From: Nibricoccus sp.
GTDB lineage: Bacteria > Verrucomicrobiota > Verrucomicrobiia > Opitutales > Opitutaceae
Assembly: GCA_047602425.1 (NCBI GenBank)
Contig: JASGHG010000001.1
Span: 5,094,925 to 5,158,924 of the forward strand
DNA length: 64,000 bases
Reading direction: 5' to 3'
The notes under the pieces were generated by a model, which was not told the DNA's origin, did not search any database, and worked only from the letters and a program-made list of their open reading frames with translations. Position 1 is the stretch's first letter. Every line of letters starts with the position of its first letter. Made by a program: the position numbers and the translations under genes. Shown here piece after piece: positions 35,962 through 53,074 of the stretch.

Positions 35962-36053
35962 GCAGCTTCGCGCGCGTGTCGTTTGATCGTCAATCAAGGT
36001 TGACGAACCACCAAACACCTTCCCTAAACCCCAAATCCTGACTCTTTTTTGGA

Positions 36054-36106
36054 CCTCGCAGCCGGCGTGACGAGCATAGGCGTTGTGCTCTAGCGCCTGG
36101 TTCGGC
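36054..36106 (-). other. attC19, truncated (only the R''/L'' half remains)
   Basis: ggcgtgacgagcataggcgttgtgctctagcgcctggtt matches attC10; no L'/R' half. Confidence 0.8.
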
Positions 36107-36110
36107 CTGT

Positions 36111-36586
36111 TTAGTCCCACCATAGGTGAATTCCGTTGTGCTTCTTGATGTACGGACTGATCTCGCCGTCATCGTCCATCATCGGTTCTACGCTAGAAAG
36201 GCTTTCCGCCAAAATTTCCAGCAATTCGTCGGTGACGGGCTTCGAAAACTTCGCCTTCAGGCCGGCGCCGTCAGCAAATATGGGATCAGCGGATTGGCGG
36301 CGTCGGCTTCGGAAACCTCCGAATATACACTGTCCGGCTCGCTTCCATCTTGTGATCCAACTTCAAAAGTCTCGATGACATACCGCACGCCTCGCTTGGG
36401 AACTAGATAAAGGCCGTATCCTTCGTCGCCGACGACACCACAGACACAATAGAAACTCTTGGCCAAAGCGTCCTTTTGCATCGCTAAAGCCTTCTTTTCG
36501 ACGACATCGGCGTCCTCACCTCCACCTGCGACAAACCAACCATCATAATCGTCAAGAGGTTCAAACGTAGTATTTTTGATTTTCAT
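36111..36586 (-). pseudogene. Cassette 19, DUF4253-like protein, frameshift near 36277
   Basis: Restoring one T in TAT TT GCT extends the frame to ...IHLWWD*, ending at the attC. Confidence 0.65.
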
Positions 36587-36780
36587 GATTTTGCCGAACG
36601 TTTTAGATCTGCCGCGACTACGGCTGGCGCGGCTCCTGCGCAGCAGGAGACGTGACGGACGTAGGCGTTGGCAGTATGCTACTAATAGGCGGATGAGGTA
36701 ACATAAGGGGCGGCCCCGGCACGGACTAGACGGTGACAAGCACGTAACCGGCACTCCTTAGCCGGAGCCGCAATCTAACC

Positions 36781-38046
36781 ATGATAACGAACAAAGCACT
36801 TAATGGCAGAACGCACTCCGGGCAACCGGAAACTCGCTGGGATATCGCCGTCGACGTCGGGCAAAAAGCACTGGACTGGTACGGTGAACTCGGGGCCCAG
36901 GCGCACCAAGGCCATATCGCCAATCGCAATGAGGCCATCCTCTCATGGCTGGAACAACTCAACACCCACGCCCGCCAGCACGGCCTTGGCGGCGTGCGCA
37001 TCCTCTGCGAACCCACCGGCGGATACGAACGGCGCCTGCTGCGCGCGGCCCGCCAACTCGGCTGCGCCACCGCTCTGGTCAACGGCGAAGCCGTCCACCA
37101 GATGCAAGTGGTCGAGAACAACGATACCGGCAAAAGCGACATCAAAGATCCCCGCACGATTTTACTATTGGCCAAGTGGAACAAAACCCTGACCGATCGT
37201 CCCCTCCAAGGCGAGTGGCTGCTCCTGCGCGAACTCAACGCCCGCTACGACCGGCTCGAACGCGACTCCACCCGCTGTAAAAACAGGATTCATAAACTGC
37301 TCCTCTCGCTCTTCCCCGAATTGAGCTTTAAAAACGACTGGCTCTTCGAAGGCCGCGCCGCCCAAGCCACGATCGCACTCTACGGCCTGAACGCCGCCGC
37401 GATCCTCGCCGACGGCCTGGAACGCTGCACCGCCAAACTGCGCAACCACCACGTTGGCCCAAAGACCATCCAGCGACTCTTTGCCGATGCCCAGCGCTGC
37501 GCCCTGATCGACTCCGACCCCGACTGGCTGGCCCTGCTCGCCGAGGACCTGCGCGCCCTCTTTGCCGAACTCACCGTGCTGCGCACCCGCCGAACCAACA
37601 CCCGCCAGCAAATGATCGCCCTGGTCGAACGCCTGCGCGCCCGCGGCGCCACCCGCCTGCAAGCCCATCCCGACCTGATCAGCCCCTTCATGCTCGCCCG
37701 TGTCCTCGCCGAGACCGGACCGCTCCGGGACTTTGCCCACGTGCGCCAACTCTGGCGCTACGGCGGGCTCAACCTGCGGCCCCGCCAAAGCGGCACCATG
37801 CAAGGCCAACTCCGCCAAGCCAAACGCGGCCGCGCCCGCCTGCGCCACGTCCTCGCCCAAGCCGTCCTCAAACGCGTCGTGCACGGACAACTCTACGGGC
37901 AATACTACCACGCCAAACGCGACACCGGCATGTGCGGCGGCAAAGCCATGACCGCGGTCGCCCGCAAGTTCCTCAAACTGCTCCACGGCCTTGAACGCTC
38001 GCCCCAACCCTTCGACCCGAAGCGCGTTTTCCGCTCCGCCGCCTAA
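36781..38046 (+). CDS. IS110 DEDD recombinase/transposase
   Basis: AVDVG, CEPTG, KSDIKD (DEDD); GLNLRPRQSG catalytic Ser. Confidence 0.95.
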   Translation: MITNKALNGRTHSGQPETRWDIAVDVGQKALDWYGELGAQAHQGHIANRNEAILSWLEQLNTHARQHGLGGVRILCEPTGGYERRLLRAARQLGCATALVNGEAVHQMQVVENNDTGKSDIKDPRTILLLAKWNKTLTDRPLQGEWLLLRELNARYDRLERDSTRCKNRIHKLLLSLFPELSFKNDWLFEGRAAQATIALYGLNAAAILADGLERCTAKLRNHHVGPKTIQRLFADAQRCALIDSDPDWLALLAEDLRALFAELTVLRTRRTNTRQQMIALVERLRARGATRLQAHPDLISPFMLARVLAETGPLRDFAHVRQLWRYGGLNLRPRQSGTMQGQLRQAKRGRARLRHVLAQAVLKRVVHGQLYGQYYHAKRDTGMCGGKAMTAVARKFLKLLHGLERSPQPFDPKRVFRSAA

Positions 38047-38090
38047 ACCACTTCCTTGATCTATTTTAGCCGACATTAACTTTTGCTTTT

Positions 38091-38264
38091 CCGGGAAACC
38101 CGCCGCTTGAGGGCCACCAGCCGTTCCGCACAGCCTCGCTGATGCTCAACTGTATGTTTTAAAGCCCCGACGGCGGGCCTCCCGGTCTTACCGCCCTTTA
38201 AGTATCGTCCGGGCCAGCCCGCCAAAGCTGGACCAACTCATGGAGATCGTCGCGGAGGACCGGG
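38091..38264 (+). ncRNA. Predicted bridge RNA/seekRNA of IS-A copy 1
   Basis: Two stem/internal-loop/stem modules with guides matching the attC target and the IS ends. Confidence 0.75.
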
Positions 38265-38474
38265 CTCCTGGTTAAAGCGCCAAAACCATATCCATCTCAT
38301 GTAACCAAAACCACCTGCTACATCCTGCCCCCGGGGCTCGTACTCCGACGAGCTGGAGGCCCATTCTCGGACTCGCCCCTCCCCCCCCCTGACGGCAAAA
38401 TCAAACTTACCCCTTGATTTTACCTAAAGGGGAGCGGCTGGTTCGGCCTCATTTTATTCCTGGCATATGATAGT

Positions 38475-38780
38475 TCATAGAAACCAGCTTCTGACGCGTC
38501 CTCTAGAAATCGCTTCAGCCAGCCATAAATCTCTCATGCAAGCGGCCAAAACTGTAGATATAGCTAGGCCGATCACGCATCCCAAAAGTCGTTCAAGTCC
38601 AATTCCCAATGAAAAACCACCCGCTAAAAAAAGCCTGAGATTGTAGAAGACTACAAAGATAGTTAGGCTAATGATTATCGCTACAACCGAAGAAAGAAAA
38701 AGACGCGCGGCTTTTGGATAGGATCGCGCAATTCTATCGAACTTCTCTCGGTGCAACCGTTCTTCGTCTTCCTTCGTCAT
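38475..38780 (-). CDS. Cassette 18, small membrane protein
   Basis: MTKEDEERL..., two hydrophobic segments, between attC sites. Confidence 0.75.
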   Translation of the reverse strand: MTKEDEERLHREKFDRIARSYPKAARLFLSSVVAIIISLTIFVVFYNLRLFLAGGFSLGIGLERLLGCVIGLAISTVLAACMRDLWLAEAISRGRVRSWFL

Positions 38781-38789
38781 GGTTTGCTT

Positions 38790-38876
38790 GCCGAACGTCA
38801 GAGGTGAGCCAACGGCGCCGGTGGCGTCGCCGAAGGAGGAGGGTTTATAGCCGTTGGCTCTGACGCCTTGTTCGGC
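38790..38876 (-). other. attC17
   Basis: GCCGAAC...GTTCGGC with imperfect internal inverted repeat. Confidence 0.9.
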
Positions 38877-39279
38877 TCTTTTTTTCTGCCTGAGTGCCTC
38901 GCAGATCGCAGAAAACGACGCCCAAGTTCGACCAAAACGCCGTCTTTTCTGCACTTACCCACTTGAGTGACGGAGCAGTGCTGTCGAAACGCATCGACAC
39001 ACCTTGGACTTCGACATCCACAAATTGACCGTCGGTTTTCTTCGCTCGGCAAATCTGTAACCGTTGCCGAGTGATTCCAGCAGCGGCAGCACTCGCCGCA
39101 AATAGGCCAATTCCAAATCCGATCACGAGCGCGGCGAAGGTATGGGAAGCGTCAGATAAGCACACACCAACGAATATCACCGCGAGGCACATGTAATGCC
39201 GACGTTTGTGGTGGGCCATAACCAACTTCTCAAACGCGTTGGCTAAGTAACCAAGTTCTGGATTTGGCGAAGGTGTCAT
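38845..39279 (-). CDS. Cassette 17, membrane protein; stop lies inside attC
   Basis: MTPSPNPELG..., two TMs. Confidence 0.7.
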   Translation of the reverse strand: MTPSPNPELGYLANAFEKLVMAHHKRRHYMCLAVIFVGVCLSDASHTFAALVIGFGIGLFAASAAAAGITRQRLQICRAKKTDGQFVDVEVQGVSMRFDSTAPSLKWVSAEKTAFWSNLGVVFCDLRGTQAEKKSRTRRQSQRL

Positions 39280-39285
39280 AAAATT

Positions 39286-39384
39286 GCCGAACGTTACAGG
39301 TGAGCCACGCCTGTGGCCGGCGCGACCGCTGCCCCGCAGCGGGCGTGACGGACATAGGCGTTGTGCTCTAGCGCCTGGTTGGGC
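39286..39384 (-). other. attC16
   Basis: GCCCAAC...GTTCGGC. Confidence 0.9.
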
Positions 39385-39394
39385 GTCTTCATAA

Positions 39395-39781
39395 TCATTC
39401 AATAACAATTTTTGTAGCGCCAGCGTGCTGTGCCGCAAAATAAAATAATGCCGGTGCAAAACCACGTAGAAACGCCCTTAAATCAGGATCGATAGAAATC
39501 CGCATTTTGATCGGGCCTAGGCACAAGCTGCCTGTCATCTCACGAACACCGAATCGCATCATAGCTTCTAGGATATCAAACGAATTTTCGCCACGGCTGA
39601 CGTCTTCGAAAATACGGGCTACTTCGTTAACGTCGCCTTGCATCGGGGCGTCGCCAACGGCCAGGACCTTCATCTCACGCGATAGATACACCACTGGCTG
39701 AAATCGATAGGTCTTCGCTCCGTCGGAAAAGCAAAACTCCCGCTTCGATGCTGATAGATGGATGGACAGAAAAAGCTTCAT
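39395..39781 (-). CDS. Cassette 16, protein resembling the N-terminal half of MreB (YjaA-like)
   Basis: QPVV...KVLAVG, FDILEAMMRF, AAQHAGATKIVIE. Confidence 0.6.
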   Translation of the reverse strand: MKLFLSIHLSASKREFCFSDGAKTYRFQPVVYLSREMKVLAVGDAPMQGDVNEVARIFEDVSRGENSFDILEAMMRFGVREMTGSLCLGPIKMRISIDPDLRAFLRGFAPALFYFAAQHAGATKIVIE

Positions 39782-39789
39782 CGTATTTT

Positions 39790-39876
39790 GCCCAACGCTA
39801 AAAGTCAGACAACGGCGCCCCACGCGTCGTCGAAGAGGGAGGCGTCATAGCCGTTGTCTGTACTGCCTGGTTGGCC
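39790..39876 (-). other. attC15
   Basis: GGCCAAC...GTTGGGC. Confidence 0.9.
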
Positions 39877-39881
39877 GGTCT

Positions 39882-40349
39882 TCATTCTTCTTTGTAGATA
39901 CGGGTGAAATTCGCGAACTCCGTGCCTGCCAAATCTGCTGCCACGACTTTTGCGGCGATATCGAAATCAACGACGAAACAACAAGTCTCCATCGTCCCGC
40001 TGCCGATGCTGCCGCCGTCACAATGTCCGAGACCAGTCCACCCCAAGGTCTCGCCCATTCGTTCCTCAAGCCGGTGGCGCTTATCTAGGTCTTCGGGCGT
40101 ACCCATGCCGTCGATGGCATATTCAATCATCAACGTGTCCAGGTCATCGATCTCCTGAAATCCTTCTTTCTTCTTCTCGGCGATCTGCGCCGTGACGGTC
40201 TTCTCAGCCGACCGGAACAATGAGCCGCGAACGGTCTCGCTCTTTCCGCGGTCACCCGCTCGCCCCCAGTGAACGGTATGCTCACCCTTGTTCTCCCACG
40301 TCTCCCAATACTCGATTCCGTCGGGATTCCTGCGATAGAGTTTAATCAT
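39882..40349 (-). CDS. Cassette 15, WGR-like domain protein
   Basis: YWETW...VHWGRAG...KKKEGF; C-terminal GHCDGGSIGSGTME. Confidence 0.7.
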   Translation of the reverse strand: MIKLYRRNPDGIEYWETWENKGEHTVHWGRAGDRGKSETVRGSLFRSAEKTVTAQIAEKKKEGFQEIDDLDTLMIEYAIDGMGTPEDLDKRHRLEERMGETLGWTGLGHCDGGSIGSGTMETCCFVVDFDIAAKVVAADLAGTEFANFTRIYKEE

Positions 40350-40542
40350 GATCTTTTGGCCAACGTTTCAGGTCAGCCATGCCGTACTGGCGAGCCGAGA
40401 AAAACAGAAACTGGACGAGCATAGGCATTGCGCTGTATGCTACTAATAGGCGGATGAGATAACATAAGGAAGCGGCCCCGGCATGGACTGGACGGAGACA
40501 AGCACGTAACCGGCACTCCTTAGCCGGAGCCGCAATCTAACA

Positions 40543-41808
40543 ATGATAACGAACAAAGCACTTAATGGCAGAACGCACTCCGGGCAACCGGAAACTCGCT
40601 GGGATATCGCCGTCGACGTCGGGCAAAAAGCACTGGACTGGTACGGTGAACTCGGGGCCCAGGCGCACCAAGGCCATATCGCCAATCGCAATGAGGCCAT
40701 CCTCTCGTGGCTGGAACAACTCAACACCCACGCCCGCCAGCACGGCCTTGGCGGCGTGCGCATCCTCTGCGAACCCACCGGCGGATACGAACGGCGCCTG
40801 CTGCGCGCGGCCCGCCAACTCGGCTGCGCCACCGCTCTGGTCAACGGCGAAGCCGTCCACCAGATGCAAGTGGTCGAGAACAACGATACCGGCAAAAGCG
40901 ACATCAAAGATCCCCGCACGATTTTACTATTGGCCAAGTGGAACAAAACCCTGACCGATCGTCCCCTCCAAGGCGAGTGGCTGCTCCTGCGCGAACTCAA
41001 CGCCCGCTACGACCGGCTCGAACGCGACTCCACCCGCTGTAAAAACAGGATTCATAAACTGCTCCTCTCGCTCTTCCCCGAATTGAGCTTTAAAAACGAC
41101 TGGCTCTTCGAAGGCCGCGCCGCCCAAGCCACGATCGCACTCTACGGCCTGAACGCCGCCGCGATCCTCGCCGACGGCCTGGAACACTGCACCGCCAAAC
41201 TGCGCAACCACCACGTTGGCCCAAAGACCATCCAGCGACTCTTTGCCGATGCCCAGCGCTGCGCCCTGATCGACTCCGACCCCGACTGGCTGGCCCTGCT
41301 CGCCGAGGACCTGCGCGCCCTCTTTGCCGAACTCACCGTGCTGCGCACCCGCCGAACCAACACCCGCCAGCAAATGATCGCCCTGGTCGAACGCCTGCGC
41401 GCCCGCGGCGCCACCCGCCTGCAAGCCCATCCCGACCTGATCAGCCCCTTCATGCTCGCCCGTGTCCTCGCCGAGACCGGACCGCTCCGGGACTTTGCCC
41501 ACGTGCGCCAACTCTGGCGCTACGGCGGGCTCAACCTGCGGCCCCGCCAAAGCGGCACCATGCAAGGCCAACTCCGCCAAGCCAAACGCGGCCGCGCCCG
41601 CCTGCGCCACGTCCTCGCCCAAGCCGTCCTCAAACGCGTCGTGCACGGACAACTCTACGGGCAATACTACCACGCCAAACGCGACACCGGCATGTGCGGC
41701 GGCAAAGCCATGACCGCGGTCGCCCGCAAGTTCCTCAAACTGCTCCACGGCCTGGAACGCTCGCCCCAACCCTTCGACCCGAAGCGCGTTTTCCGCTCCG
41801 CCGCCTAA
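40543..41808 (+). CDS. IS110 DEDD recombinase/transposase
   Basis: One amino-acid difference from copy 1 (LEHC vs LERC). Confidence 0.95.
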   Translation: MITNKALNGRTHSGQPETRWDIAVDVGQKALDWYGELGAQAHQGHIANRNEAILSWLEQLNTHARQHGLGGVRILCEPTGGYERRLLRAARQLGCATALVNGEAVHQMQVVENNDTGKSDIKDPRTILLLAKWNKTLTDRPLQGEWLLLRELNARYDRLERDSTRCKNRIHKLLLSLFPELSFKNDWLFEGRAAQATIALYGLNAAAILADGLEHCTAKLRNHHVGPKTIQRLFADAQRCALIDSDPDWLALLAEDLRALFAELTVLRTRRTNTRQQMIALVERLRARGATRLQAHPDLISPFMLARVLAETGPLRDFAHVRQLWRYGGLNLRPRQSGTMQGQLRQAKRGRARLRHVLAQAVLKRVVHGQLYGQYYHAKRDTGMCGGKAMTAVARKFLKLLHGLERSPQPFDPKRVFRSAA

Positions 41809-41852
41809 ACCACTTCCTTGATCTATTTTAGCCGACATTAACTTTTGCTTTT

Positions 41853-42026
41853 CCGGGAAACCCGCCGCTTGAGGGCCACCAGGCGTTCCGCACAGCCTCG
41901 CTGATGCTCAACTGTATGTTTTAAAGCCCCGACGGCGGGCCTCCCGGTCTTACCGCCCTTTAAGTATCGTCCGGGCCAGCCCTCAAAAGCTGGACCAACT
42001 CATGGGGATCGTCGCGGAGGACCGGG
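41853..42026 (+). ncRNA. Predicted bridge RNA of IS-A copy 2
   Basis: Guides ACCAGGCGTT 41878-87, CTGTAT 41912-17, TAAGTATCGT 41961-70, GGGGAT 42004-09. Confidence 0.75.
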
Positions 42027-42180
42027 CTCCTGGTTAAAGCGCCAAAACCATATCCATCTCATGTAACCAAAACCACCTGCTACATCCTGCCCCCGGGGCT
42101 CGTCCTCCGACGAGCTGGAGGCCCATTCTCGGACTCGCCCCTCTCCCCCCTGACTGCAAAATCAAACTTACCCCTTGATT

Positions 42181-42573
42181 TTACCTAAAGGGGAGCGCCT
42201 GGTTAGGCGTATTTTCAAAATGCCCTAAATATACCGTCAACGGTCCGCTGCCAGACGTGATGACGATTGTTTGGTGCTCGTCTTCCAATACTTCGCGCGT
42301 GCCATCAGATTCAACTTTCAAGCCAACTTCTGTCTTCTCGCAGCCGGAGATAATAAACACGAATTTCCCTTCCGAACTTTGCTTGAGAAAGTCGCGCACC
42401 ACTTCTTGGTCTCGGCAACACTGTCTGATTTCTTTCTCTGTCAGTGGGCCGACAAACGGCCTACCATTTGCAACTTCTTTGGCTACCCGCACACGAGCAG
42501 CTTCCGCTCTTTCTTTCTGACTCAATCCGCACGCCGACAAGAGCACGCAAAGTAACAAGATAAGCCGGATCAT
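42181..42573 (-). CDS. Cassette 14, lipoprotein; stop now supplied by the IS-A end
   Basis: MIRLILLLCVLLSAC lipobox. Confidence 0.75.
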   Translation of the reverse strand: MIRLILLLCVLLSACGLSQKERAEAARVRVAKEVANGRPFVGPLTEKEIRQCCRDQEVVRDFLKQSSEGKFVFIISGCEKTEVGLKVESDGTREVLEDEHQTIVITSGSGPLTVYLGHFENTPNQALPFR

Positions 42574-42738
42574 ATTTGGCCTAGACACTATAGCTGCGTG
42601 CGCGACGCAGGCGTTAAAATAGACGAAGGTGCTTGTCCCCTGGAACGCGGGTTACTCCGGGTTGCCCTGGAGCCTATCCGCAAGGAGGAAGGAGTCGTGT
42701 TAGCAACCACCAAAACCACCTGGAAAGGAGACAAGCAC

Positions 42739-43851
42739 ATGAAAACGACAGATAAATATATTGGGTTAGATGTCCACAAAGATACGATCACGGTAGCCAT
42801 CGCCGAAGGCGTCCGTCTGGGCGAAGTTCGCCAGTACGGGAAGATCTCGAACGACCTGCATTCGTTGGAAAAACTCCTGCCCCGCCTCGGCGGCGAAAAA
42901 GTCCGGCTGCACTTTGTTTACGAAGCCGGTCCGACCGGCTTTGTGATCCACCGCTGGCTCTTGAAGCGCAACATCGATTCCATCGTGGTCGCACCTTCGA
43001 AGACCCCCACCGAAAAAGGCGGGCGTCAAAAGACCGACCGGCGCGATGCCGAACAACTCGCCAGGTTGCACCGAGCCGGCGAGCTCAAGGCCATCCACGT
43101 GCCCGACGAACTCGACGAAGCCATCCGCGATCTCACCCGGGCTCGCTCCGACGCGGTCGACGATCTGCGCCGGGCCAAGCAACGCCTCAAATCCTTCCTC
43201 CTGCGCCACGGTTACAAGTACCAGGGGAAGGCCGACTGGTCCGACGCTCACCGACGTTACCTCAGGGAACTGGTTTTGCCCATCGCTTCGCAAAAAGCCG
43301 TGCTCGAGGAATGCCTCATGGCCATCACCGATGCGACCCACCGCCTCCAGCGCTTCGACGACCTGATCGCCGCCCAGGTGCCCCAGTGGCGCATGTACCC
43401 GGCGGTCCAGGCGCTCATGTGCCTGCGCGGCTTCCAACTGACCGCTGCCACGATCCTCGTCGCCGAACTTGGCGATGTAAGAAGGTTCGAGCACCCCCGC
43501 CACCTCATGGGCTACCTCGGCCTCGTGCCCAAAGAGCAAACCACCGGCGAGAGTCGCCATCTGGGCTCCATCACCAAGGCCGGCAACTGCCACGCCCGTT
43601 GGATCCTGATCGAAGCGGTGCAATCGAGCTTCCTGCCGCCCAAAGTCTCCTCGCCGTTGTCCACCCGCCAGCAAGGACAACCCAAGCTCTACCGCGACCT
43701 CGCCTGGAAAACCCAGGTCCGCTTGTATAAACGGGGACGACATCTGCTCAGTCGCGGCCTGATGAAGCAAAAGATCATCGTCGCCCTCGCACGTGAACTT
43801 TCCGGCTTCGTCTGGGATCTGCTCCGACAGGTGCCGGAGCCCAAAAACTGA
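42739..43851 (+). CDS. IS110 DEDD recombinase/transposase (second type)
   Basis: IGLDVHKD, YEAGPTG, KTDRRDA, YLGLVPKEQTTG, ITKAGN; AAGGAG SD. Confidence 0.95.
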   Translation: MKTTDKYIGLDVHKDTITVAIAEGVRLGEVRQYGKISNDLHSLEKLLPRLGGEKVRLHFVYEAGPTGFVIHRWLLKRNIDSIVVAPSKTPTEKGGRQKTDRRDAEQLARLHRAGELKAIHVPDELDEAIRDLTRARSDAVDDLRRAKQRLKSFLLRHGYKYQGKADWSDAHRRYLRELVLPIASQKAVLEECLMAITDATHRLQRFDDLIAAQVPQWRMYPAVQALMCLRGFQLTAATILVAELGDVRRFEHPRHLMGYLGLVPKEQTTGESRHLGSITKAGNCHARWILIEAVQSSFLPPKVSSPLSTRQQGQPKLYRDLAWKTQVRLYKRGRHLLSRGLMKQKIIVALARELSGFVWDLLRQVPEPKN

Positions 43852-43935
43852 ACAAGACCGATTGCTTAGCACTATGATTTAGTTCTTTGTCAGAGCCGTC
43901 CAACAGGGCGGCAGTTGTCAGGGACCGGGCACCGA

Positions 43936-44054
43936 GCCCATGCACGTTAACGTTACGAGCAACGACGACCCCGCGTCACCGTCACGCTCGAGCCTAGAGT
44001 CTGCGGGCAAGACGCACCATTGTCTGGTCGGTACCCGATCCACGAATATCAGCT
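43936..44054 (+). ncRNA. Predicted bridge RNA of IS-B (3'-truncated)
   Basis: Target loop GTTAACGTTA / GCCTAG around a cgagc:gctcg stem; donor loop CATTGTCTG / ATATCAG. Confidence 0.65.
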
Positions 44055-44337
44055 CGACCAACCGACCCTCGCGCTCCCAAAGATGAATGCCGATCTTCTG
44101 TCCATCACGAGTCAAACCGATGTGATCGGCGATTTGATACTTCGGCTCTTTCTTCTTTTGCGGCTCGGGCTCAAACATGACCGTCGGGCATTTGCCGCAA
44201 CCGCAGCGGGCTAAAACATGAAGCGCATCGACTTCACTCGAGCGCGAGGAATCAACGTCCGCAAGAAGTCGTACGACTATCGCCCGCTCTTCTTTCGTGA
44301 GCTCTCTGTCGGCGGGAATGCTATACGGGAAACTCAT
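44050..44337 (-). pseudogene. Cassette 13, 3'-truncated ORF (CGCGKCPT motif) fused to IS-B sequence
   Basis: ATG follows an R' box; after GRLVEL the frame runs into IS-B non-coding DNA to 43918; attC missing. Confidence 0.65.
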
Positions 44338-44527
44338 CTTATTTTGCCCAACGATCTCTGGTCAGCCACGCCGAGCTGGCGACTCGAAATTTGAAACGGA
44401 CCCCGTCGAGGCGTTGCGCTGTATGCTACTAATAGGCGGATGAGGTAACATAAGGGGCGGCCCCGGCACGGACTAGACGGTGACAAGCACGTAACCGGCA
44501 CTCCTTAGCCGGAGCCGCAATCTAACC

Positions 44528-45793
44528 ATGATAACGAACAAAGCACTTAATGGCAGAACGCACTCCGGGCAACCGGAAACTCGCTGGGATATCGCCGTCG
44601 ACGTTGGGCAAAAAGCACTGGACTGGTACGGTGAACTCGGGGCCCAGGCGCACCAAGGCCATATCGCCAATCGCAATGAGGCCATCCTCTCATGGCTGGA
44701 ACAACTCAACACCCACGCCCGCCAGCACGGCCTTGGCGGCGTGCGCATCCTCTGCGAACCCACCGGCGGATACGAACGGCGCCTGCTGCGCGCGGCCCGC
44801 CAACTCGGCTGCGCCACCGCCTTGGTCAACGGCGAAGCCGTCCACCAGATGCAAGTGGTCGAGAACAACGATACCGGCAAAAGCGACATCAAAGATCCCC
44901 GCACGATTTTACTATTGGCCAAATGGAACAAAACCCTGACCGATCGTCCCCTCCAAGGCGAGTGGCTGCTCCTGCGCGAACTCAACGCCCGCTACGACCG
45001 GCTCGAACGCGACTCCACCCGCTGTAAAAACAGGATTCATAAACTGCTCCTCTCGCTCTTCCCCGAATTGAGCTTTAAAAACGACTGGCTCTTCGAAGGC
45101 CGCGCCGCCCAAGCCACGATCGCACTCTACGGCCTGAACGCCGCCGCGATCCTCGCCGACGGCCTGGAACGCTGCACCGCCAAACTGCGCAACCACCACG
45201 TTGGCCCAAAGACCATCCAGCGACTCTTCGCCGACGCCCAGCGCTGCGCCCTGATCGACTCCGACCCCGACTGGCTGGCCCTGCTCGCCGAGGACCTGCG
45301 CGCCCTCTTTGCCGAACTCACCGTGCTGCGCACCCGCCGAACCAACACCCGCCAGCAAATGATCGCCCTGGTCGAACGCCTGCGCGCCCGCGGCGCCACC
45401 CGCCTGCAAGCCCATCCCGACCTGATCAGCCCCTTCATGCTCGCCCGTGTCCTCGCCGAGACCGGACCGCTCCGGGACTTTGCCCACGTGCGCCAACTCT
45501 GGCGCTACGGCGGGCTCAACCTGCGGCCCCGCCAAAGCGGCACCATGCAAGGCCAACTCCGCCAAGCCAAACGCGGCCGCGCCCGCCTGCGCCACGTCCT
45601 CGCCCAAGCCGTCCTCAAACGCGTCGTGCACGGACAACTCTACGGGCAATACTACCACGCCAAACGCGACACCGGCATGTGCGGCGGCAAAGCCATGACC
45701 GCGGTCGCCCGCAAGTTCCTCAAACTGCTCCACGGCCTTGAACGCTCGCCCCAACCCTTCGACCCGAAGCGCGTTTTCCGCTCCGCCGCCTAA
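44528..45793 (+). CDS. IS110 DEDD recombinase/transposase
   Basis: Protein matches copy 1. Confidence 0.95.
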   Translation: MITNKALNGRTHSGQPETRWDIAVDVGQKALDWYGELGAQAHQGHIANRNEAILSWLEQLNTHARQHGLGGVRILCEPTGGYERRLLRAARQLGCATALVNGEAVHQMQVVENNDTGKSDIKDPRTILLLAKWNKTLTDRPLQGEWLLLRELNARYDRLERDSTRCKNRIHKLLLSLFPELSFKNDWLFEGRAAQATIALYGLNAAAILADGLERCTAKLRNHHVGPKTIQRLFADAQRCALIDSDPDWLALLAEDLRALFAELTVLRTRRTNTRQQMIALVERLRARGATRLQAHPDLISPFMLARVLAETGPLRDFAHVRQLWRYGGLNLRPRQSGTMQGQLRQAKRGRARLRHVLAQAVLKRVVHGQLYGQYYHAKRDTGMCGGKAMTAVARKFLKLLHGLERSPQPFDPKRVFRSAA

Positions 45794-45837
45794 ACCACTT
45801 CCTTGATCTATTTTAGCCGACATTAACTTTTGCTTTT

Positions 45838-46011
45838 CCGGGAAACCCGCCGCTTGAGGGCCACCAGCCGTTCCGCACAGCCTCGCTGATGCTCAACTGT
45901 ATGTTTTAAAGCCCCGACGGCGGGCCTCCCGGTCTTACCGCCCTTTAAGTATCGTCCGGGCCAGCCCTCAAAAGCTGGACCAACTCATGGGGATCGTCGC
46001 GGAGGACCGGG
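45838..46011 (+). ncRNA. Predicted bridge RNA of IS-A copy 3
   Basis: Guides ACCAGCCGTT 45863-72 and GGGGAT 45989-94. Confidence 0.75.
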
Positions 46012-46201
46012 CTCCTGGTTAAAGCGCCAAAACCATATCCATCTCATGTAACCAAAACCACCTGCTACATCCTGCCCCCCGGGGCTCGTCCTCCGACGAG
46101 CTGGAGGCCCATTCTCGGACTCGCCCCTCTCCCCCCTGACGGCAAAATCAAACTTACCCCTTGATTTTACCTAAAGGGGAGCGCCTGGTTGGGCTCCGTT
46201 T

Positions 46202-46495
46202 TCATTCCTGTGAGAAAACCTTTTTAAACCAATACGCTTCAGGAGCACAAAACCATGACCGATTTCTTTCCGTAACGAAAGGCGCAAGCTGGCGTAAATC
46301 GACCTCGTAGCGAAAAAACAGGCCCAGCAACTCGCGAAGCGCTTTGTCTGATAATCGTGAGGCGACGGACAAAAACAAATCTGACCCGCGACCTTCAATC
46401 TTCTTCACGGCGGCAATCTTCTTCAACGCATCAAAGAACATCTCTTCGTCGAGCTGCGAGTAGAACGACATTTCGTGGCACTTAAGGACGGTCAT
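46202..46495 (-). CDS. Cassette 12, hypothetical protein
   Basis: 97-aa ORF filling the inter-attC space. Confidence 0.8.
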   Translation of the reverse strand: MTVLKCHEMSFYSQLDEEMFFDALKKIAAVKKIEGRGSDLFLSVASRLSDKALRELLGLFFRYEVDLRQLAPFVTERNRSWFCAPEAYWFKKVFSQE

Positions 46496-46502
46496 TTATT
46501 TT

Positions 46503-46596
46503 GCCCAACGTTACAGGTCAGCCACGCCGTACTGGCGGGCAGGGATTAAAAGGACGGACGTAGTCATAGGCGTTGCGCTGTAGCGACTGGTTAGCC
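46503..46596 (-). other. attC11 (duplicate of attC7)
   Basis: GGCTAAC...GTTGGGC. Confidence 0.9.
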
Positions 46597-46600
46597 CTCT

Positions 46601-46912
46601 TCAATACGCGCCTCCTTTTGGCACGCGACCTTCGCTATCGGGAAACTTTCCTGAGGCAATCGTCTTCGCTTTATGTGGGAACGGATAAACGTCGATTGCG
46701 TCACCAGGCCGCACTTCCTTCTTCAAGTACTCTTCGAACATCTCGAAATCGTAAAATGCGAGCGGCGTCGGCGCGCGGCCACCATAGTAATGCCAATGCT
46801 CAACCGCGATATTGCCAACATCGTCAAGGTGCTTCCGCACGGCCTCCAAATTTCCGTGGCTGAGAATATTCTCTCCGTCCGTGCTCCAGACTGGTTGAGT
46901 ACCGTGCGTCAT
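46601..46912 (-). CDS. Cassette 11, hypothetical protein (duplicate of cassette 7)
   Basis: MTHGTQPVW...PKGGAY. Confidence 0.8.
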   Translation of the reverse strand: MTHGTQPVWSTDGENILSHGNLEAVRKHLDDVGNIAVEHWHYYGGRAPTPLAFYDFEMFEEYLKKEVRPGDAIDVYPFPHKAKTIASGKFPDSEGRVPKGGAY

Positions 46913-46920
46913 CTTATTTT

Positions 46921-47019
46921 GGCTAACGTTATAGGTGAGCCACGCCTGTGCTCGGCGCGACGGCTGCTCCGCAGCTGGCGTGACGAGCATAGGCGTTGTG
47001 CTCTAGCGCCTGGTTAGCC
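46921..47019 (-). other. attC10 (duplicate of attC6)
   Basis: GGCTAAC...GTTAGCC. Confidence 0.9.
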
Positions 47020-47349
47020 TCCGTTTTCATCTGTCGAAAGCTCACTAACGGGAATGCATCGCGATGAATACACGATTCGATATCGGGCTCCGATTTCCTC
47101 GGCCAACGCCAAACAAAGCCGCCGGCCTTCAGTATCGAATCTTTCTTCCTCTTCGGCGGACCAACTCGTAGCAGCTGGATCACTGACGTTGAGATGTGAA
47201 TCGTACGTAGCCGACCAATTTTCGAGCGCCTGAGCTAAGCGATCAGAAACCCCAAGCTCGCGTGGCTCAATATTTCCAGGCGGCCCCTCATGACGCCAAA
47301 TCGGCCAGCAACCATAATCGGCCATGAGCTTGAGCGCAGGTTTCGGCAT
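47014..47349 (-). CDS. Cassette 10, hypothetical protein (duplicate of cassette 6)
   Basis: LMADYGCWPIW; stop inside the R'' box. Confidence 0.8.
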   Translation of the reverse strand: MPKPALKLMADYGCWPIWRHEGPPGNIEPRELGVSDRLAQALENWSATYDSHLNVSDPAATSWSAEEEERFDTEGRRLCLALAEEIGARYRIVYSSRCIPVSELSTDENGG

Positions 47350-47359
47350 ATTTCTCTTC

Positions 47360-47458
47360 GGCTAACGTTAACGGTGAGCCATGACTATGGCCGGCATGAC
47401 TCGTGCCTCGCACGAGGCATGACGGACATAGGCATTGCGCTCTAGCAGCTGGTTCGGC
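47360..47458 (-). other. attC9 (duplicate of attC2)
   Basis: GCCGAAC...GTTAGCC. Confidence 0.9.
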
Positions 47459-47462
47459 GTCT

Positions 47463-47837
47463 TCATGACCATATCTTCCACCATGGTTTCTTCGGTGCGC
47501 CAAAAATATGGCATGTCGCGATGCGCGCTTCGGGCGGCAAATCAGCGCTAGCGAAGGGCAAAATGTCCATGAAAGTGCCAGTAGGCAGAAGGAGCTTCAT
47601 CTTACTAATGAGATCCTGCATTACTTCCGGAATTTCTTCTCTACCGCCTACGCCCACGACAAGCACTTGGCGCGCTTCGGCATCACCCTCGATATAAGTC
47701 TGCGGAACGTAAGCTTCAAAAATACCGGGGACCTGCGCGACGACCTGTCCAAGGGCGTCCATCTGTACCTCAGGCATCGGCTTCGATGGCGCACCAAAAA
47801 ACATCTTAGCTCCGACGGGAAGTGTTCGCTCACTCAT
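47463..47837 (-). CDS. Cassette 9, SseB C-terminal-like protein (duplicate of cassette 2)
   Basis: FGAPSKP...PGIFEAY...VLVVG...MDILP; KKPWWKIW tail. Confidence 0.7.
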   Translation of the reverse strand: MSERTLPVGAKMFFGAPSKPMPEVQMDALGQVVAQVPGIFEAYVPQTYIEGDAEARQVLVVGVGGREEIPEVMQDLISKMKLLLPTGTFMDILPFASADLPPEARIATCHIFGAPKKPWWKIWS

Positions 47838-47842
47838 ATTTT

Positions 47843-47941
47843 GCCGAACGTTACAGGTGTGCCGCGCCTGTGGCCGGCGCGACCGGTGCGCCAGCAGCGG
47901 GCGTGACGGACATAGGCGTTGGCACTAGCGCCTGGTTCGCC
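47843..47941 (-). other. attC8
   Basis: GGCGAAC...GTTCGGC. Confidence 0.9.
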
Positions 47942-48384
47942 GGTTTAAGAAGTTCTCGCTCCACACTCATCCCATCATCTTTTTCTTTGGAATCTAACAG
48001 ATAAACAACAGCCACTTTACTCAGTCCAAAACTCGAAATATCCAGTTCGAATATCTGCCCGACGCGATACGGCTCGATTTTCGATCCACCTGGCGCGCTC
48101 GCAACAAATATATGCCATTTCTTTCCTTTATAGTCGGCAGGAGATAGCACTTCGAACTCCAAACGGTCATAGAGCTTCTTGGCTTCTTCGCCGTAGGAAC
48201 TAACCGCCTTATATTCCAGCTGACCTCCGACAATCTTTACGATCAACTTCCGATTTTCCTTTTCACCCGTATTCGCAAGCTTAGCGAAATCGACCTCGGG
48301 AGTCACAGCTTCTGCTTGGTCTGAGGCCGTGAGCAAACCGGAAGACAGAAAACTGACAACAAGAACCAAGGATAGAATCTTCAT
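47851..48384 (-). CDS. Cassette 8, exported protein reading through nearly all of attC8
   Basis: Signal peptide; C-terminus NQALVPT...AAHL is attC-encoded. Confidence 0.8.
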   Translation of the reverse strand: MKILSLVLVVSFLSSGLLTASDQAEAVTPEVDFAKLANTGEKENRKLIVKIVGGQLEYKAVSSYGEEAKKLYDRLEFEVLSPADYKGKKWHIFVASAPGGSKIEPYRVGQIFELDISSFGLSKVAVVYLLDSKEKDDGMSVERELLKPANQALVPTPMSVTPAAGAPVAPATGAAHL

Positions 48385-48389
48385 TTTTT

Positions 48390-48483
48390 GGCGAACGTTA
48401 CAGGTCAGCCACGCCGTACTGGCGGGCAGGGATTAAAAGGACGGACGTAGTCATAGGCGTTGCGCTGTAGCGACTGGTTAGCC
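48390..48483 (-). other. attC7
   Basis: GGCTAAC...GTTCGCC. Confidence 0.9.
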
Positions 48484-48487
48484 CTCT

Positions 48488-48799
48488 TCAATACGCGCCT
48501 CCTTTTGGCACGCGACCTTCGCTATCGGGAAACTTTCCTGAGGCAATCGTCTTCGCTTTATGTGGGAACGGATAAACGTCGATTGCGTCACCAGGCCGCA
48601 CTTCCTTCTTCAAGTACTCTTCGAACATCTCGAAATCGTAAAATGCGAGCGGCGTCGGCGCGCGGTCACCATAGTAATGCCAATGCTCAACCGCGATATT
48701 GCCAACATCGTCAAGGTGCTTCCGCACGGCCTCCAAATTTCCGTGGCTGAGAATATTCTCTCCGTCCGTGCTCCAGACTGGTTGAGTACCGTGCGTCAT
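48488..48799 (-). CDS. Cassette 7, hypothetical protein
   Basis: One amino-acid difference (D/G) from cassette 11. Confidence 0.8.
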   Translation of the reverse strand: MTHGTQPVWSTDGENILSHGNLEAVRKHLDDVGNIAVEHWHYYGDRAPTPLAFYDFEMFEEYLKKEVRPGDAIDVYPFPHKAKTIASGKFPDSEGRVPKGGAY

Positions 48800-48807
48800 C
48801 TTATTTT

Positions 48808-48906
48808 GGCTAACGTTATAGGTGAGCCACGCCTGTGCTCGGCGCGACGGCTGCTCCGCAGCTGGCGTGACGAGCATAGGCGTTGTGCTCTAGCGCCTGG
48901 TTAGCC
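48808..48906 (-). other. attC6
   Basis: GGCTAAC...GTTAGCC. Confidence 0.9.
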
Positions 48907-49236
48907 TCCGTTTTCATCTGTCGAAAGCTCACTAACGGGAATGCATCGCGATGAATACACGATTCGATATCGGGCTCCGATTTCCTCGGCCAACGCCAAA
49001 CAAAGCCGCCGGCCTTCAGTATCGAATCTTTCTTCCTCTTCGGCGGACCAACTCGTAGCAGCTGGATCACTGACGTTGAGATGTGAATCGTACGTAGCCG
49101 ACCAATTTTCGAGCGCCTGAGCTAAGCGATCAGAAACCCCAAGCTCGCGTGGCTCAATATTTCCAGGCGGCCCCTCATGACGCCAAATCGGCCAGCAACC
49201 ATAATCGGCCATGAGCTTGAGCGCAGGTTTCGGCAT
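48901..49236 (-). CDS. Cassette 6, hypothetical protein
   Basis: Same protein as cassette 10. Confidence 0.8.
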   Translation of the reverse strand: MPKPALKLMADYGCWPIWRHEGPPGNIEPRELGVSDRLAQALENWSATYDSHLNVSDPAATSWSAEEEERFDTEGRRLCLALAEEIGARYRIVYSSRCIPVSELSTDENGG

Positions 49237-49246
49237 ATTTCTCTTC

Positions 49247-49333
49247 GGCTAACGTCAAAGGTGAGCCAACGGCGCCAGCGACGCTGCCGCAGCAGGAGGG
49301 ATTATAGCCGTTGGCTCTGACGCCTTGTTCGGC
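49247..49333 (-). other. attC5
   Basis: GCCGAAC...GTTAGCC; same subtype as attC17. Confidence 0.9.
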
Positions 49334-49360
49334 CTTTTCTTTCTCGGTGTGCAAATCATT

Positions 49361-49735
49361 TCAGCGTTCTCCATCTTTTCGCTCATCAGGCCACGCCTCG
49401 CCCATAACGCGGCCCATCCAGTCGTAGTAGAGCTGAGTGTCGAATGGCTCCACGGGCAACTCTCGACCATTCTTCGTGAGACGATAGCCGTCGATCATCA
49501 TACGATCATGGAGAAAGACCAACGAATCATGAATGCCGCCTTCTCTCGCATGCTCGACGAGTTTCGCGATCGCTTCTCTGTCTTTATCTTTCAGCCCGGC
49601 GCACAGGGAAGATAGCCGCTCAAATTCGGGCGTAGCGGGGAAAGCGCACTTTCTAACCCAACCAGCCATCACGCCAGCACGAACCTTCACCAGTCCATCA
49701 ATCAGCGATTTGTAATCTTCAAGAGGCGTAGGCAT
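49361..49735 (-). CDS. Cassette 5, hypothetical protein (DUF6547-like)
   Basis: YKSLIDGLV, GGIHDSL, YDWMGR...WP; family name from recall. Confidence 0.7.
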   Translation of the reverse strand: MPTPLEDYKSLIDGLVKVRAGVMAGWVRKCAFPATPEFERLSSLCAGLKDKDREAIAKLVEHAREGGIHDSLVFLHDRMMIDGYRLTKNGRELPVEPFDTQLYYDWMGRVMGEAWPDERKDGER

Positions 49736-49744
49736 ACAATTTTT

Positions 49745-49838
49745 GCCGAACGTTACAGGTCAGCCACGCCGTACCAGCGGGCAGGAATAAACAGAAACCG
49801 GATGATCATAGGCGTTGCGCTGTAGCGGCTGGTTCGGC
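49745..49838 (-). other. attC4
   Basis: GCCGAAC...GTTCGGC. Confidence 0.9.
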
Positions 49839-49841
49839 CAC

Positions 49842-50099
49842 TTAACTCGTGTATTTCATGTAACCTCGAAATATCCAAATGAATCCGACAACAAGCGGGC
49901 CCCAGAAAAAGAGCGCCGGGCCACCGTTTTCTGCAGCTGACTGAGTGGTGACTATTGTCACGATCCCACCGCACACCATTAGAACAGCTCCGCCAATCAT
50001 GTCGTTCCGCCCAGACCGCTTCTTTGCCTTTGCTTTTGCCAGAAGCGCTTCGTCTTCACTTACGCCTTCGTTTCTTATTTTGTCCATGTAATCAGCCAT
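49842..50099 (-). CDS. Cassette 4, small two-TM protein
   Basis: 85-aa ORF between attC sites. Confidence 0.75.
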   Translation of the reverse strand: MADYMDKIRNEGVSEDEALLAKAKAKKRSGRNDMIGGAVLMVCGGIVTIVTTQSAAENGGPALFFWGPLVVGFIWIFRGYMKYTS

Positions 50100-50128
50100 A
50101 GTAGTTCCTTAGTGAAAAATTATCTTTT

Positions 50129-50227
50129 GCCGAACGTCAAAGGTGAGCCACGACTATGGCCGGCGCGACAGCTGCCCCGCAGCTGGCGTGACGGACATAG
50201 ACGTTGCGCTCTAACGCCTGGTTAGCC
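50129..50227 (-). other. attC3
   Basis: GGCTAAC...GTTCGGC. Confidence 0.9.
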
Positions 50228-50529: not shown

Positions 50530-50531
50530 TT

Positions 50532-50630
50532 GGCTAACGTTAACGGTGAGCCATGACTATGGCCGGCATGACTCGTGCCTCGCACGAGGCATGACGGACA
50601 TAGGCATTGCGCTCTAGCAGCTGGTTCGGC
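50532..50630 (-). other. attC2
   Basis: GCCGAAC...GTTAGCC. Confidence 0.9.
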
Positions 50631-50634
50631 GTCT

Positions 50635-51009: not shown

Positions 51010-51014
51010 ATTTT

Positions 51015-51679: not shown

Positions 51680-53074
51680 ATGAGCACGGAGGAAATCATT
51701 TTAAAACCCAAGGACGCGGTGCGGCGGTTGTTGACGGCGGCTGGCGTGAATGTTCCCGACAAGGAGGCTTATTGGCTGGGCTTCCATATGGAACGATTTG
51801 TGAATCATACGCGCAGGCATGGCGAGCTTTTAGACCTCCCGACCGCTTCGGAAAATTATTTGATTCACTTTCGAGGCAATGTCCCGGTTCCAGAAGCCTG
51901 GCAGATTACCCAAGTGAAACAGGCGTTGGAATTGTTTGCGAGGGGCACCGAGGGTTGGCGCTGGGTGGAAGCGAAAGAATCAGAATATGCCACTAATAAT
52001 GTGGCTGGTCCAAGTGGCTGGGTTTTGCGCTACCGCATTAAGGCCAGTGGTTCGAGCCGGGTGATCGCCGCGGGCGTGAGCGCGGTTTCTCCCGATGGAG
52101 CACCAGCGCAGTTGGCGGACTGGATGGACAGGCTGCAGCGGGCAGTTCGGGTGAGTCATTATTCGATCAGGACGGAGAGATCTTATTTGGAGCTGGTACG
52201 CCGGTTTTTGTTATATACGGGACCGGTTTCAGAGAAGGCCCTGGGAGACGTGCAGGTGAAACGATTTTTGGAGCATTTGGCTTTGGAGCGGTTGGTAGCG
52301 GCGAGCACCCAGAATCAGGCGTTTTCGGCAATTTTGTTTTTCTTCAAACGGGTGCTTGGGCGGGACCTGGGCGACATGAGCGGCACTTTGCGCGCCAAAC
52401 GCGGGCGGCAACTGCCGGTGGTTTTAGCGAAGGAAGAGGTCGGGCGTCTGCTGGCGATGTCCGAGGGCACCACCGGTCTGATGTTGCGGCTCATTTATGG
52501 CACGGGGTTGCGCTTGATGGAGTGCATCCGTCTGCGGGTTAAGGAAATCGATTTCAAGCGACGCATGCTGCTGGTCCGTGCCGGCAAGGGCAACAAGGAC
52601 CGCATGGTGATGTTGCCCGAGGCTTTGGCGGAAATTTTGCAGCAGCATTTTGAACGGTTGCGGATTTTATGGGAGCAGGACAGGGCCGCTAATGTCGCAG
52701 GTGTGTGGCTACCCGGCGCTCTGGAATCGAAGTATCCCAACGCAGGAAAAGAGTTTGGCTGGCAATGGGTTTTTCCGGCCCGAGATTTGTCGGTGGATCC
52801 TCGTTCGGGCCTTATTCGCCGGCACCACGTGCACGACAATACCCTGCACAAAGCGGTGAAAATCGCAGCGCAGCGGGCGGGGATAGTGGCAGCGGTCAGC
52901 GTGCATACGCTAAGGCATTCGTTTGCGACGCATCTGCTGGAAGCAGGTACGGACATTCGTACGGTACAGGAGTTGCTCGGACACTCTCACGTGGAAACGA
53001 CACAGATCTATACGCATGTGATGCAGAAGCCGGGGCTGGGAGTGAAGAGCCCGCTGGATGCGTTGGTTGGTTAA
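51680..53074 (+). CDS. intI: Integron integrase with N-terminal extension
   Basis: YGTGLR, GKGNKDR, IntI-specific KYPNAGKEFGWQWVFPA...RRHH, HTLRHSFATH, LGH, TQIYTHV. Confidence 0.97.
   Translation: MSTEEIILKPKDAVRRLLTAAGVNVPDKEAYWLGFHMERFVNHTRRHGELLDLPTASENYLIHFRGNVPVPEAWQITQVKQALELFARGTEGWRWVEAKESEYATNNVAGPSGWVLRYRIKASGSSRVIAAGVSAVSPDGAPAQLADWMDRLQRAVRVSHYSIRTERSYLELVRRFLLYTGPVSEKALGDVQVKRFLEHLALERLVAASTQNQAFSAILFFFKRVLGRDLGDMSGTLRAKRGRQLPVVLAKEEVGRLLAMSEGTTGLMLRLIYGTGLRLMECIRLRVKEIDFKRRMLLVRAGKGNKDRMVMLPEALAEILQQHFERLRILWEQDRAANVAGVWLPGALESKYPNAGKEFGWQWVFPARDLSVDPRSGLIRRHHVHDNTLHKAVKIAAQRAGIVAAVSVHTLRHSFATHLLEAGTDIRTVQELLGHSHVETTQIYTHVMQKPGLGVKSPLDALVG

Follow-up and report, generated by a model that had tools for sequence, protein, structure and literature searches.

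Here we describe an insertion sequence (IS), IS-A, carried by a 64,000-nucleotide stretch of the genome of Nibricoccus sp., a member of the Verrucomicrobiota (GenBank assembly GCA_047602425.1, contig JASGHG010000001.1, positions 5,094,925 to 5,158,924 of the forward strand). This whole stretch is referred to below as the window. IS-A sits there in three copies within an integron array whose cassettes run on the minus strand, at about 36000-51600, and each copy combines a transposase gene of the IS110 family with a long non-coding right end. The locus comprises the following features:

36677..38433, plus strand: IS-A copy 1, 1757 base pairs (bp), the shared core A being counted at the right end
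40438..42194, plus strand: IS-A copy 2, carrying a variant (ACCAGGCG) of the first predicted guide that fits its own GCGCCTGG flank
44424..46180, plus strand: IS-A copy 3
36781..38046, plus strand: IS110 transposase of 421 amino acids (other copies at 40543-41808 and 44528-45793)
36686..36689, plus strand: short subterminal inverted repeat TAGG (partner CCTA at 38423-38426)
36593..36676, minus strand: attC of copy 1, R' side, left of the IS
38434..38447, minus strand: attC of copy 1, R'' side, 7 nucleotides (nt) and then the core GTTCGGC on the plus strand
40358..40437, minus strand: attC of copy 2, left part (right part at 42195-42208)
44346..44423, minus strand: attC of copy 3, left part (right part at 46181-46194)
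51680..53074, plus strand: integron integrase of the host array (TIGR02249, 418.7 bits for a cutoff of 265)

An initial, sequence-only reading of the window had proposed that three 1757-bp copies share one attC base without target duplication. The three copies were recovered at the positions listed, and the shared base extends to the whole genome, where IS-A is present nine times in copies about 99% identical (one of them interrupted by an IS3-type element): at 9/9 insertions the attC base is identical, a single A stands at either side of the element and the target is not duplicated. The flanks read ctgtA|gcg or cagtA|gcg, and the element, which lies 7 bp inside the R'' core, is oriented antisense to the cassettes. 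Its non-coding ends measure 104 bp on the left and 387 bp on the right, a right-end length that holds for copies 1 and 3 but is 386 bp in copy 2. On the evidence of sequence that follows, we consider it very probable that IS-A is a recently active bridge recombinase element of the IS110 family, belonging to a distinct clade and homing to integron attC sites.

The transposase and its relatives

The IS-A protein matches Pfam PF01548 (58.6 bits) and PF02371 (52 bits), both in excess of their cutoffs, which correspond to an N-terminal DEDD RuvC domain and a C-terminal Tnp domain with its serine, and the catalytic residues D25, E77, D120 and D123, together with S337-G338, are kept in 79-80 of 80 homologues. 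It is to be regarded as divergent, since its score against NCBIfam NF033542 (110.5 bits) falls below the cutoff of 140. The predicted structure (predicted local distance difference test, pLDDT, of 85.9) is matched by Foldseek to IS621/ISCro4 with an E value of 3e-12 and 19% identity, and Nop5 complexes are also found among the fold matches. The nearest sequence neighbours are long IS110 transposases; in 72,556 plasmids 166 records matched, with 24-30% identity among the 30 matches listed.

A protein search returned 185 relatives at an E value of 1e-20 or better. A locus search of genome contigs with the single protein gave no relative, and the search succeeded with an alignment of 80 sequences as query, yielding 77 genome and 80 metagenome loci of 31-80% identity. 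Downstream DNA is available for 147 loci, 128 of which match the RNA profile described below and 114 of which (two window copies included) are complete enough to align. Clustering at 90% identity left 75 clusters, used as the units for covariation, and 60-65 of these have the flank needed in each comparison. A strict regular expression parsed 46/128 loci only and was replaced by the alignment; a first crude end caller, by which GTT stood at +8 in 61/87, was likewise abandoned, several of its rows being mis-anchored.

A predicted bridge RNA in the right end

The right end of IS-A contains a predicted RNA with two modules and four guides, laid out as follows:

38082..38275, plus strand: predicted bridge RNA of two stem-loop-stem modules (covariance-model hit of 93 bits; consensus fold)
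38099..38177, plus strand: predicted target-binding module (outer stem 38099-105 with 38171-77)
38116..38125, plus strand: guide 1, complementary to the right target arm and the core
38150..38156, plus strand: guide 2, with the left target arm CTGT, the core A and the handshake bases TG, which fit the IS left end
38181..38264, plus strand: predicted donor-binding module (outer stem 38181-89 with 38256-64)
38199..38208, plus strand: guide 3, complementary to the IS left end (5/6 in the family register for IS-A)
38242..38249, plus strand: guide 4, with the IS right end, the core A and, after it, positions that track the target in the family as a whole

The consensus fold of 58 homologues consists of two modules, each a stem, an internal loop and a stem, with all four guides placed in loops. 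Over the 36 pairs tested, 94.4% of the cells are paired and 33/36 pairs are compensatory on both sides (0/500 shuffles; slid controls at most 43%). Furthermore, a covariance model found 15/16 held-out loci of the clade, 12 of them at E < 1e-7, and 0/11 other IS110/IS1111 loci. In the genome its 9 hits all lie within IS-A, so that no solo copy of the RNA was detected with it, and a Rfam scan of 36000-52000 returned no family. A motif resembling GA(U/G)GRYC precedes both guides of the target loop (alignment columns 61-67 and 99-105); it resembles box C of C/D RNAs.

Much of what the sequence-only reading had drawn in this region stands: the outer stems of both modules are present at 38099/38171 and 38181/38256, every guide motif lies where it had been placed, the guides are looped and not base-paired in the consensus, and two of the checks it had suggested, a covariance model and guide/target covariation, were run and are both positive. 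The CCG and CTCA(A/T) parallels that it had seen between the modules are not conserved in the homologues.

In many clade members, including IS-A (38290-38410) and the loci L033, L093, L097 and L109, the RNA is separated from the right end by an additional hairpin region, GC-rich and variable, with GCTTCGC/GCTACGC-like loops, resembling repetitive extragenic palindromic (REP) or attC sequences in look. In the locus L020 (positions 2563 and 2972) the gene 3′ end and the right end are tandemly duplicated.

Guides that covary with the DNA they would read

The four guides were compared with their presumed partners across the clusters by 5000 permutations, with the same results at an 80% threshold; the homologues are related, so the permutation counts overstate significance. 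Guide 1 matches the right target arm at 5.53/9 positions against 3.72 when permuted (n=60), guide 2 the left target arm at 4.25/6 against 2.50, and guide 3 the IS left end at 5.60/6 against 4.57 (n=63), whereas the last three bases of guide 4 match the IS right end with frequencies of 1.00, 0.98 and 0.98 (n=65); 0/5000 permutations equalled any of the four. Controls in which guides were assigned to the wrong module remain at or below the null. Among nine held-out loci, guide 2 fits 3-4 of 4 positions plus both following bases in 7/9, the other two looking shifted by one column, guide 4 fits 3/3 in 8/9, and guide 1 fits 7-8 of 9 in 6/9.

For IS-A alone, comparison with 5000 shuffles of the right end gives chance levels of 2.7% for guide 1, 1.5% for guide 2, 4.1% for guide 4 and 54% for guide 3, the last being simply what chance yields, and all four guides jointly were reached in 0/5000. 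The earlier proposal that guide 3 resembles the left end is thus borne out by the family covariation but not by IS-A on its own. In turn, the sequence first assigned to guide 1 is that of 8/9 copies (ACCAGCCG), copy 2 having ACCAGGCG, and the GGGGAT assigned to guide 4 is also that of 8/9 copies, copy 1 carrying GGAGAT. Of the CTGTAT proposed to match the left flank, CTGTA does so, but the T (and the next G) fit the IS left end, the target having G there. Similarly, the fit of guide 4 to the circle junction holds for the right-end bases, whereas the two bases after the core follow the target more across the family.

Handshake positions and an apparent one-base core

These last bases deserve separate consideration. 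In IS621, pairing with non-cognate DNA has been described to drive strand exchange and pairing with cognate DNA to block it (PMC11208158). The bases that follow the shared A in both 3′ guides of the IS-A clade would be handshake guides that read the partner DNA. In guide 2, agreement of the first two bases past the invariant A with the IS left end reaches 0.89 and 0.94 (permuted 0.51 and 0.47), that with the target only 0.27 and 0.23, and the third base is null (0.19). In guide 4, the two bases after the A follow the target with frequencies of 0.53 and 0.57 (0/5000) versus 0.22 and 0.21 for the donor, that is, the circle junction. Both handshake bases equal the cognate DNA in only 1/50 and 0/50 clusters, in keeping with the IS621 rule.

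The core A is present on both junctions in 49/50 clusters, and the bases at -1 and +1 are common to both in 7/50 and 9/50. The recombination core would thus be, apparently, a single base, and by analogy the invariant A might be the protein-read T (T9) of the IS621 core seen from the opposite strand. An account that we find unlikely, without dismissing it, is that the core has its customary length of two bases and that a mismatch, tolerated there, is always resolved toward one strand, the one-base core being only apparent. IS621 indeed tolerates changes at the first core base (PMC11208160), and top-strand-only transfer has been reported for CazIS110-1 (bioRxiv 10.1101/2025.10.25.684509) and for IS621. 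A single locus, L108, has A at its left junction and G at its right one, as expected if one strand fixed the junction. The donor-loop handshake signal is modest, and in IS-A itself the first base of guide 4 after the A fits the donor and not the target. Against a two-base core, the neighbours of the A are common only at chance level, and in guide 2 both bases after the A follow non-cognate DNA and the third does not, so that a two-base handshake would directly adjoin the A.

The junction itself was seen once in nature. In L152 a right end is joined to a left end with one A, forming TTGACT-17-TACTAT (9/12 promoter match); it may nevertheless be a tandem or an assembly loop and not a circle. For IS-A no end-to-end junction was seen, and four DNA contig sets from sequencing runs cover the element in part and contain no joints. 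Its right end carries a candidate -35 of the circle-junction promoter (TTGATT, 38414..38419, plus strand), inferred from sequence. The candidate -10 that the circle would bring to it is weak (TACTAA; 35/56 clusters have TACTAT), and the spacing between the two elements varies from 14 to 20.

Target use in the genome

The choice of sites within the genome gives a further layer of evidence. The nine IS-A copies were deleted in silico and an attC profile was run on the result, giving 61 hits, 43 of them with a callable site. The left arm read by guide 2, CTGTA, is present in 7/9 occupied and 6/34 empty sites (Fisher p 0.0014), a comparison affected by the caller's misplacement of five empty rows and by kinship among the sites, which makes them non-independent. 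In the 5.1 Mb IS-free genome, all 12 occurrences of CTGTA[AG]CGNCTGG fall within attC hits, and 7 of these are occupied. The guide-1 variant of copy 2 is unique among the nine copies and matches the flank of that copy, which is suggestive of guide-target fit and no more than that, for four other copies occupy the same flank type yet carry the common guide 1.

Fold covariation, covariation between guides and DNA, and genomic target use thus support the idea, already advanced from the window alone, of an IS110-family recombinase with a bispecific right-end RNA aimed at attC. Several points weigh against it. The single-sequence fold of IS-A is weak (z of -1.06 for the module and -2.12 for the whole end) and pairs guides 1 and 2 in part; the IS ends were called from IS-internal motifs chosen once the sequences had been seen; guide 3 of IS-A mismatches the left end at 1/6 positions, and 5/9 occupied sites score 8/9 with the commonest guide 1. 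Because of that mismatch and of these imperfect sites, the protein or the attC structure may add specificity.

Taken further, targeting would depend mainly on the protein or on the attC hairpin, the guide matches being secondary, or else only the target loop would work, as a seekRNA, beside a vestigial donor loop. The average fit of guide 1, only 5.5/9, agrees with this, and there are precedents: a short target-only RNA is sufficient for ISEc11 (Siddiquee et al.), RNA of the target loop alone dominates in CazIS110-1 (bioRxiv 10.1101/2025.10.25.684509), and ISPpu10 is reported to need sequence plus structure. We nonetheless hold this explanation to be improbable, for both donor guides covary almost perfectly with the IS ends, over 10 right-end and 17 left-end type pairs, and in some members that lack the attC GTT the guides agree with the flanks of the element itself.

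A group II intron of 1945 bp (GTGTG start, YADD reverse transcriptase) lies at G000:C1:924716-926660, within an attC and on the same strand, at a distance of 9 nt from the IS-A target base. It accounts for what had seemed a boundary with reversed polarity of attC sites, a candidate that was therefore rejected. Also rejected was the transfer between arrays of a two-cassette block with both ends at IS target points, as its left boundary falls inside a cassette gene.

A cross-phylum clade and its origin

According to their record titles, the members of the clade come from Verrucomicrobiota, Desulfobacterota, Nitrospirota, Marinimicrobia, Latescibacterota, Bacteroidota, Acidobacteriota and others. 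Their proteins are about 420 amino acids long. The attC GTT begins at +8 in 46/60 clusters and at +7 to +9 in 54/60; counted by offset, it is found at +8 in 42/55 and at any other offset in at most 6. In a constrained hairpin test, at least 10 arm pairs were formed in 33/41 sites versus 25/84 control windows, while a strict attC test, which asks for the terminal AAC:GTT to be paired in a free fold, did not discriminate (11/41, against 11-14 with swapped flanks and 5/30 controls). An integrase was present within the short flanks of 3 homologue loci only. Judging from these flanks, most members of the clade, not all, live in attC-like sites. The loci L107, L043 and L161 lack the attC GTT in the right flank, and in L107 the guides fit its own new flank at 8/10 positions by reading, a possible case of natural retargeting away from attC.

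No match was found in the sampled kin genomes, by protein (0/60), by profile (0/400) and by the RNA model (0/150), and a pattern scan of viral contigs gave 0. The longest subterminal inverted repeat is of 4-6 nt in 52/77 loci and of 11 nt in 1/77. The IS1111-like layout without clear subterminal repeats that had been proposed for IS-A is therefore right as to layout and the lack of long repeats, but a short 4-nt repeat does exist. In a quick tree of 72 rows with midpoint root, ISKpn4 not being among them, the clade is set apart by a branch with a support of 100 in the Shimodaira-Hasegawa-like approximate likelihood ratio test (SH-aLRT) and a length of 1.22; its sister is formed by long IS110 proteins, and the IS1111 references are on a branch of their own (99), with long-type IS110 proteins in between.

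That IS-A would be a divergent member of the attC-targeting IS1111 group (ISKpn4, ISPst6, ISPa21, ISPa25) that lost long inverted repeats, attC targeting having arisen once, is hardly credible: this group does use the same target class, antisense near the attC 5′ end (PMC3001079), and IS1111 seekRNAs lie, as in IS-A, in the downstream non-coding region with the top-strand guide first (PMC11187229), but the IS-A transposase has 421 amino acids versus 330-350 in IS1111, five IS1111 references give only short local hits to it (52-104 amino acids, best E 0.005), the motifs of the clade are not in the ISfinder transposase set, the inverted repeat of IS-A is 4 nt, and the tree just described, albeit quick and built without ISKpn4, keeps the two apart.

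IS-A thus probably represents a second, independent route of the IS110 family to attC. A broader reading, to which our data would give about even odds, is that of a cross-phylum clade aimed at attC since its origin, independent of the IS1111-attC elements, whose guides would have been retuned for each host attC family and which would recombine through one shared base with adjoining handshake guides. The reprogrammability of IS-A would follow from natural covariation.

Proposed mechanism

A right-end RNA of roughly 170-190 nt would bind the transposase as a ribonucleoprotein (RNP), its first loop reading the attC target, about 9 nt on the right arm and 4-5 nt on the left, and its second loop reading both IS ends. 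By extension from the IS110 literature, a circle would be formed on exit, probably by copy-out, a promoter at its junction would transcribe the gene together with the RNA, and the RNP would then pair the attC target with the joined IS ends. One strand would be exchanged at a single base with the help of the handshake, the next two guide bases pairing only with the partner DNA after exchange, and the outcome would be an insertion 7 bp inside the R'' core, in antisense orientation with respect to the cassettes.

Other features of the arrays

Between IS-A copies 2 and 3 a cassette is broken by a second IS110 element, IS-B (42598-43851, likely start 42739), which is unrelated to IS-A, is 42% identical to ISEc45, exceeds the NCBIfam cutoff and has 1 copy in the genome. 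A two-cassette block is repeated at 1887 bp (46492-49268) and a single cassette at 3172 bp (47357-47850 and 50529-51022), and a WGR-domain protein is encoded by the cassette at 39882-40349 on the minus strand. Elsewhere in the genome, a second integron integrase (G000:C1:919184-920230), 49.7% identical to the first, has its own array, and more attC clusters are found near 287-302 kb, 1.49 Mb, 4.13 Mb, 4.37 Mb and 4.83 Mb, with no integrase hit there.

The IS3-type element that interrupts one IS-A copy has 3 genome copies and a 3-bp ATC duplication; at G000:C1:290760-292066 it is inserted within guide 3 of the IS-A copy at 289229 and breaks the donor loop of this copy. Two IS-A copies in different arrays (G000:C1:292785-293183 and 924317-924715) have an identical left flank, made of half an attC and the next cassette, and different right flanks; therefore, one attC is chimeric across IS-A, parts of cassettes having been reshuffled when recombination took place at the element or within it.

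Comparison with known systems

The enzyme kind is already known, both bridge RNAs and attC-targeting IS1111 elements having been published. ISKpn4, ISPst6 and ISPa25 are such elements, with a seekRNA shown for ISKpn4 and ISPst6 (PMC11187229); that attC-targeting IS1111 elements exist had already been stated in the sequence-only reading. The right-end layout alone is not new either, since IS110-type elements with a downstream region are described as exceptions in that same source. The IS1111-attC group shares with IS-A the DEDD transposase, a guide RNA downstream of the gene with the top-strand guide before the bottom-strand guide, and insertion in attC antisense to the cassettes without duplication, a likeness at the level of the attC site. 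It differs in the protein, distant and of about 340 amino acids versus 421 (as judged through other IS1111 references and motif searches), and in the subterminal repeats, of 11-13 bp at 7 and 3 bp from the ends in IS1111 and of 4 nt in IS-A, while IS-A has a full second loop reading both IS ends and its clade is hosted mostly outside Proteobacteria.

With IS621 and ISCro4 (IS622), IS-A shares the RuvC-coiled coil-Tnp fold, two internal-loop modules with four guides (PMC11208160, PMC11208158), handshake guides and short subterminal repeats, and it may share a junction promoter, a candidate one in IS-A. In IS621 the bridge RNA is in the left end and the protein has 315-330 amino acids, whereas in IS-A the RNA is in the right end and the 421-residue protein has about 95 extra residues. 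The orientation of the RNA relative to the gene is opposite in the two, and seen from the opposite strand the guide order of IS-A is that of IS621, left guide and then right. Furthermore, the handshake of IS621 lies beyond a CT dinucleotide core, whereas that of IS-A touches an apparent single-base core.

CazIS110-1 also has a two-loop RNA, of about 170 nt, with loops described as pairing with the integrated junctions, and top-strand transfer is reported for it (bioRxiv 10.1101/2025.10.25.684509). Its host group and target are other than those of IS-A, the likeness being one of RNA and mechanism, and a top-strand copy-out/paste-in of this type would explain strand-determined junctions in the IS-A clade. 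The long IS110 transposases of the IS650 or Bacillota type, the nearest neighbours in the plasmid matches listed and the sister group in the tree, are separated from the clade by its long branch, and the RNA model finds nothing in three of their loci. Finally, group IIC-attC introns are unrelated RNA-based retroelements without transposase that home to the same attC strand and end (PMC3001079); the group II intron found in this genome resembles them.

The clade is apparently uncatalogued. In the ISfinder transposase set provided as source data of PMC11187229, the clade motifs CEPTG and AETGP have 0 hits and KDP has one unrelated hit; six clade motifs have 0 hits in the searchable supplements of PMC11208160, and in the part of its cluster table that was covered none of the 43 rows with GKSD is clade-like by eye. 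No record of the clade was found in the literature listed on IS110/IS1111, bridge RNA, attC and integrons. A 2026 preprint (bioRxiv 10.64898/2026.10.21.760802) reduces 181,180 IS110-adjacent regions to 86 models; its main text has no mention of attC, and its supplements may hold the clade and one-base cores.

Implications

If true, a one-base core with natural handshake guides would allow more sequences to be addressed and would offer a test of the strand-exchange model, the core constraint being looser than in IS621/ISCro4 and the clade amounting to a natural library of attC-programmed guides. Among tools for genome editing, bridge recombinases are recent, and to our knowledge those characterised so far require a core of two bases. 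With dozens of natural guide-target pairs at hand, the rules can be tested directly.

For the biology of integrons, the IS-A clade would be a further independent parasite of attC, beside the IS1111-attC elements and the group IIC-attC introns. As its insertion separates the R'' side from the remainder of the attC, the affected cassettes should be locked in place and, at the same time, repeated copies of IS-A can join halves of different attC sites.

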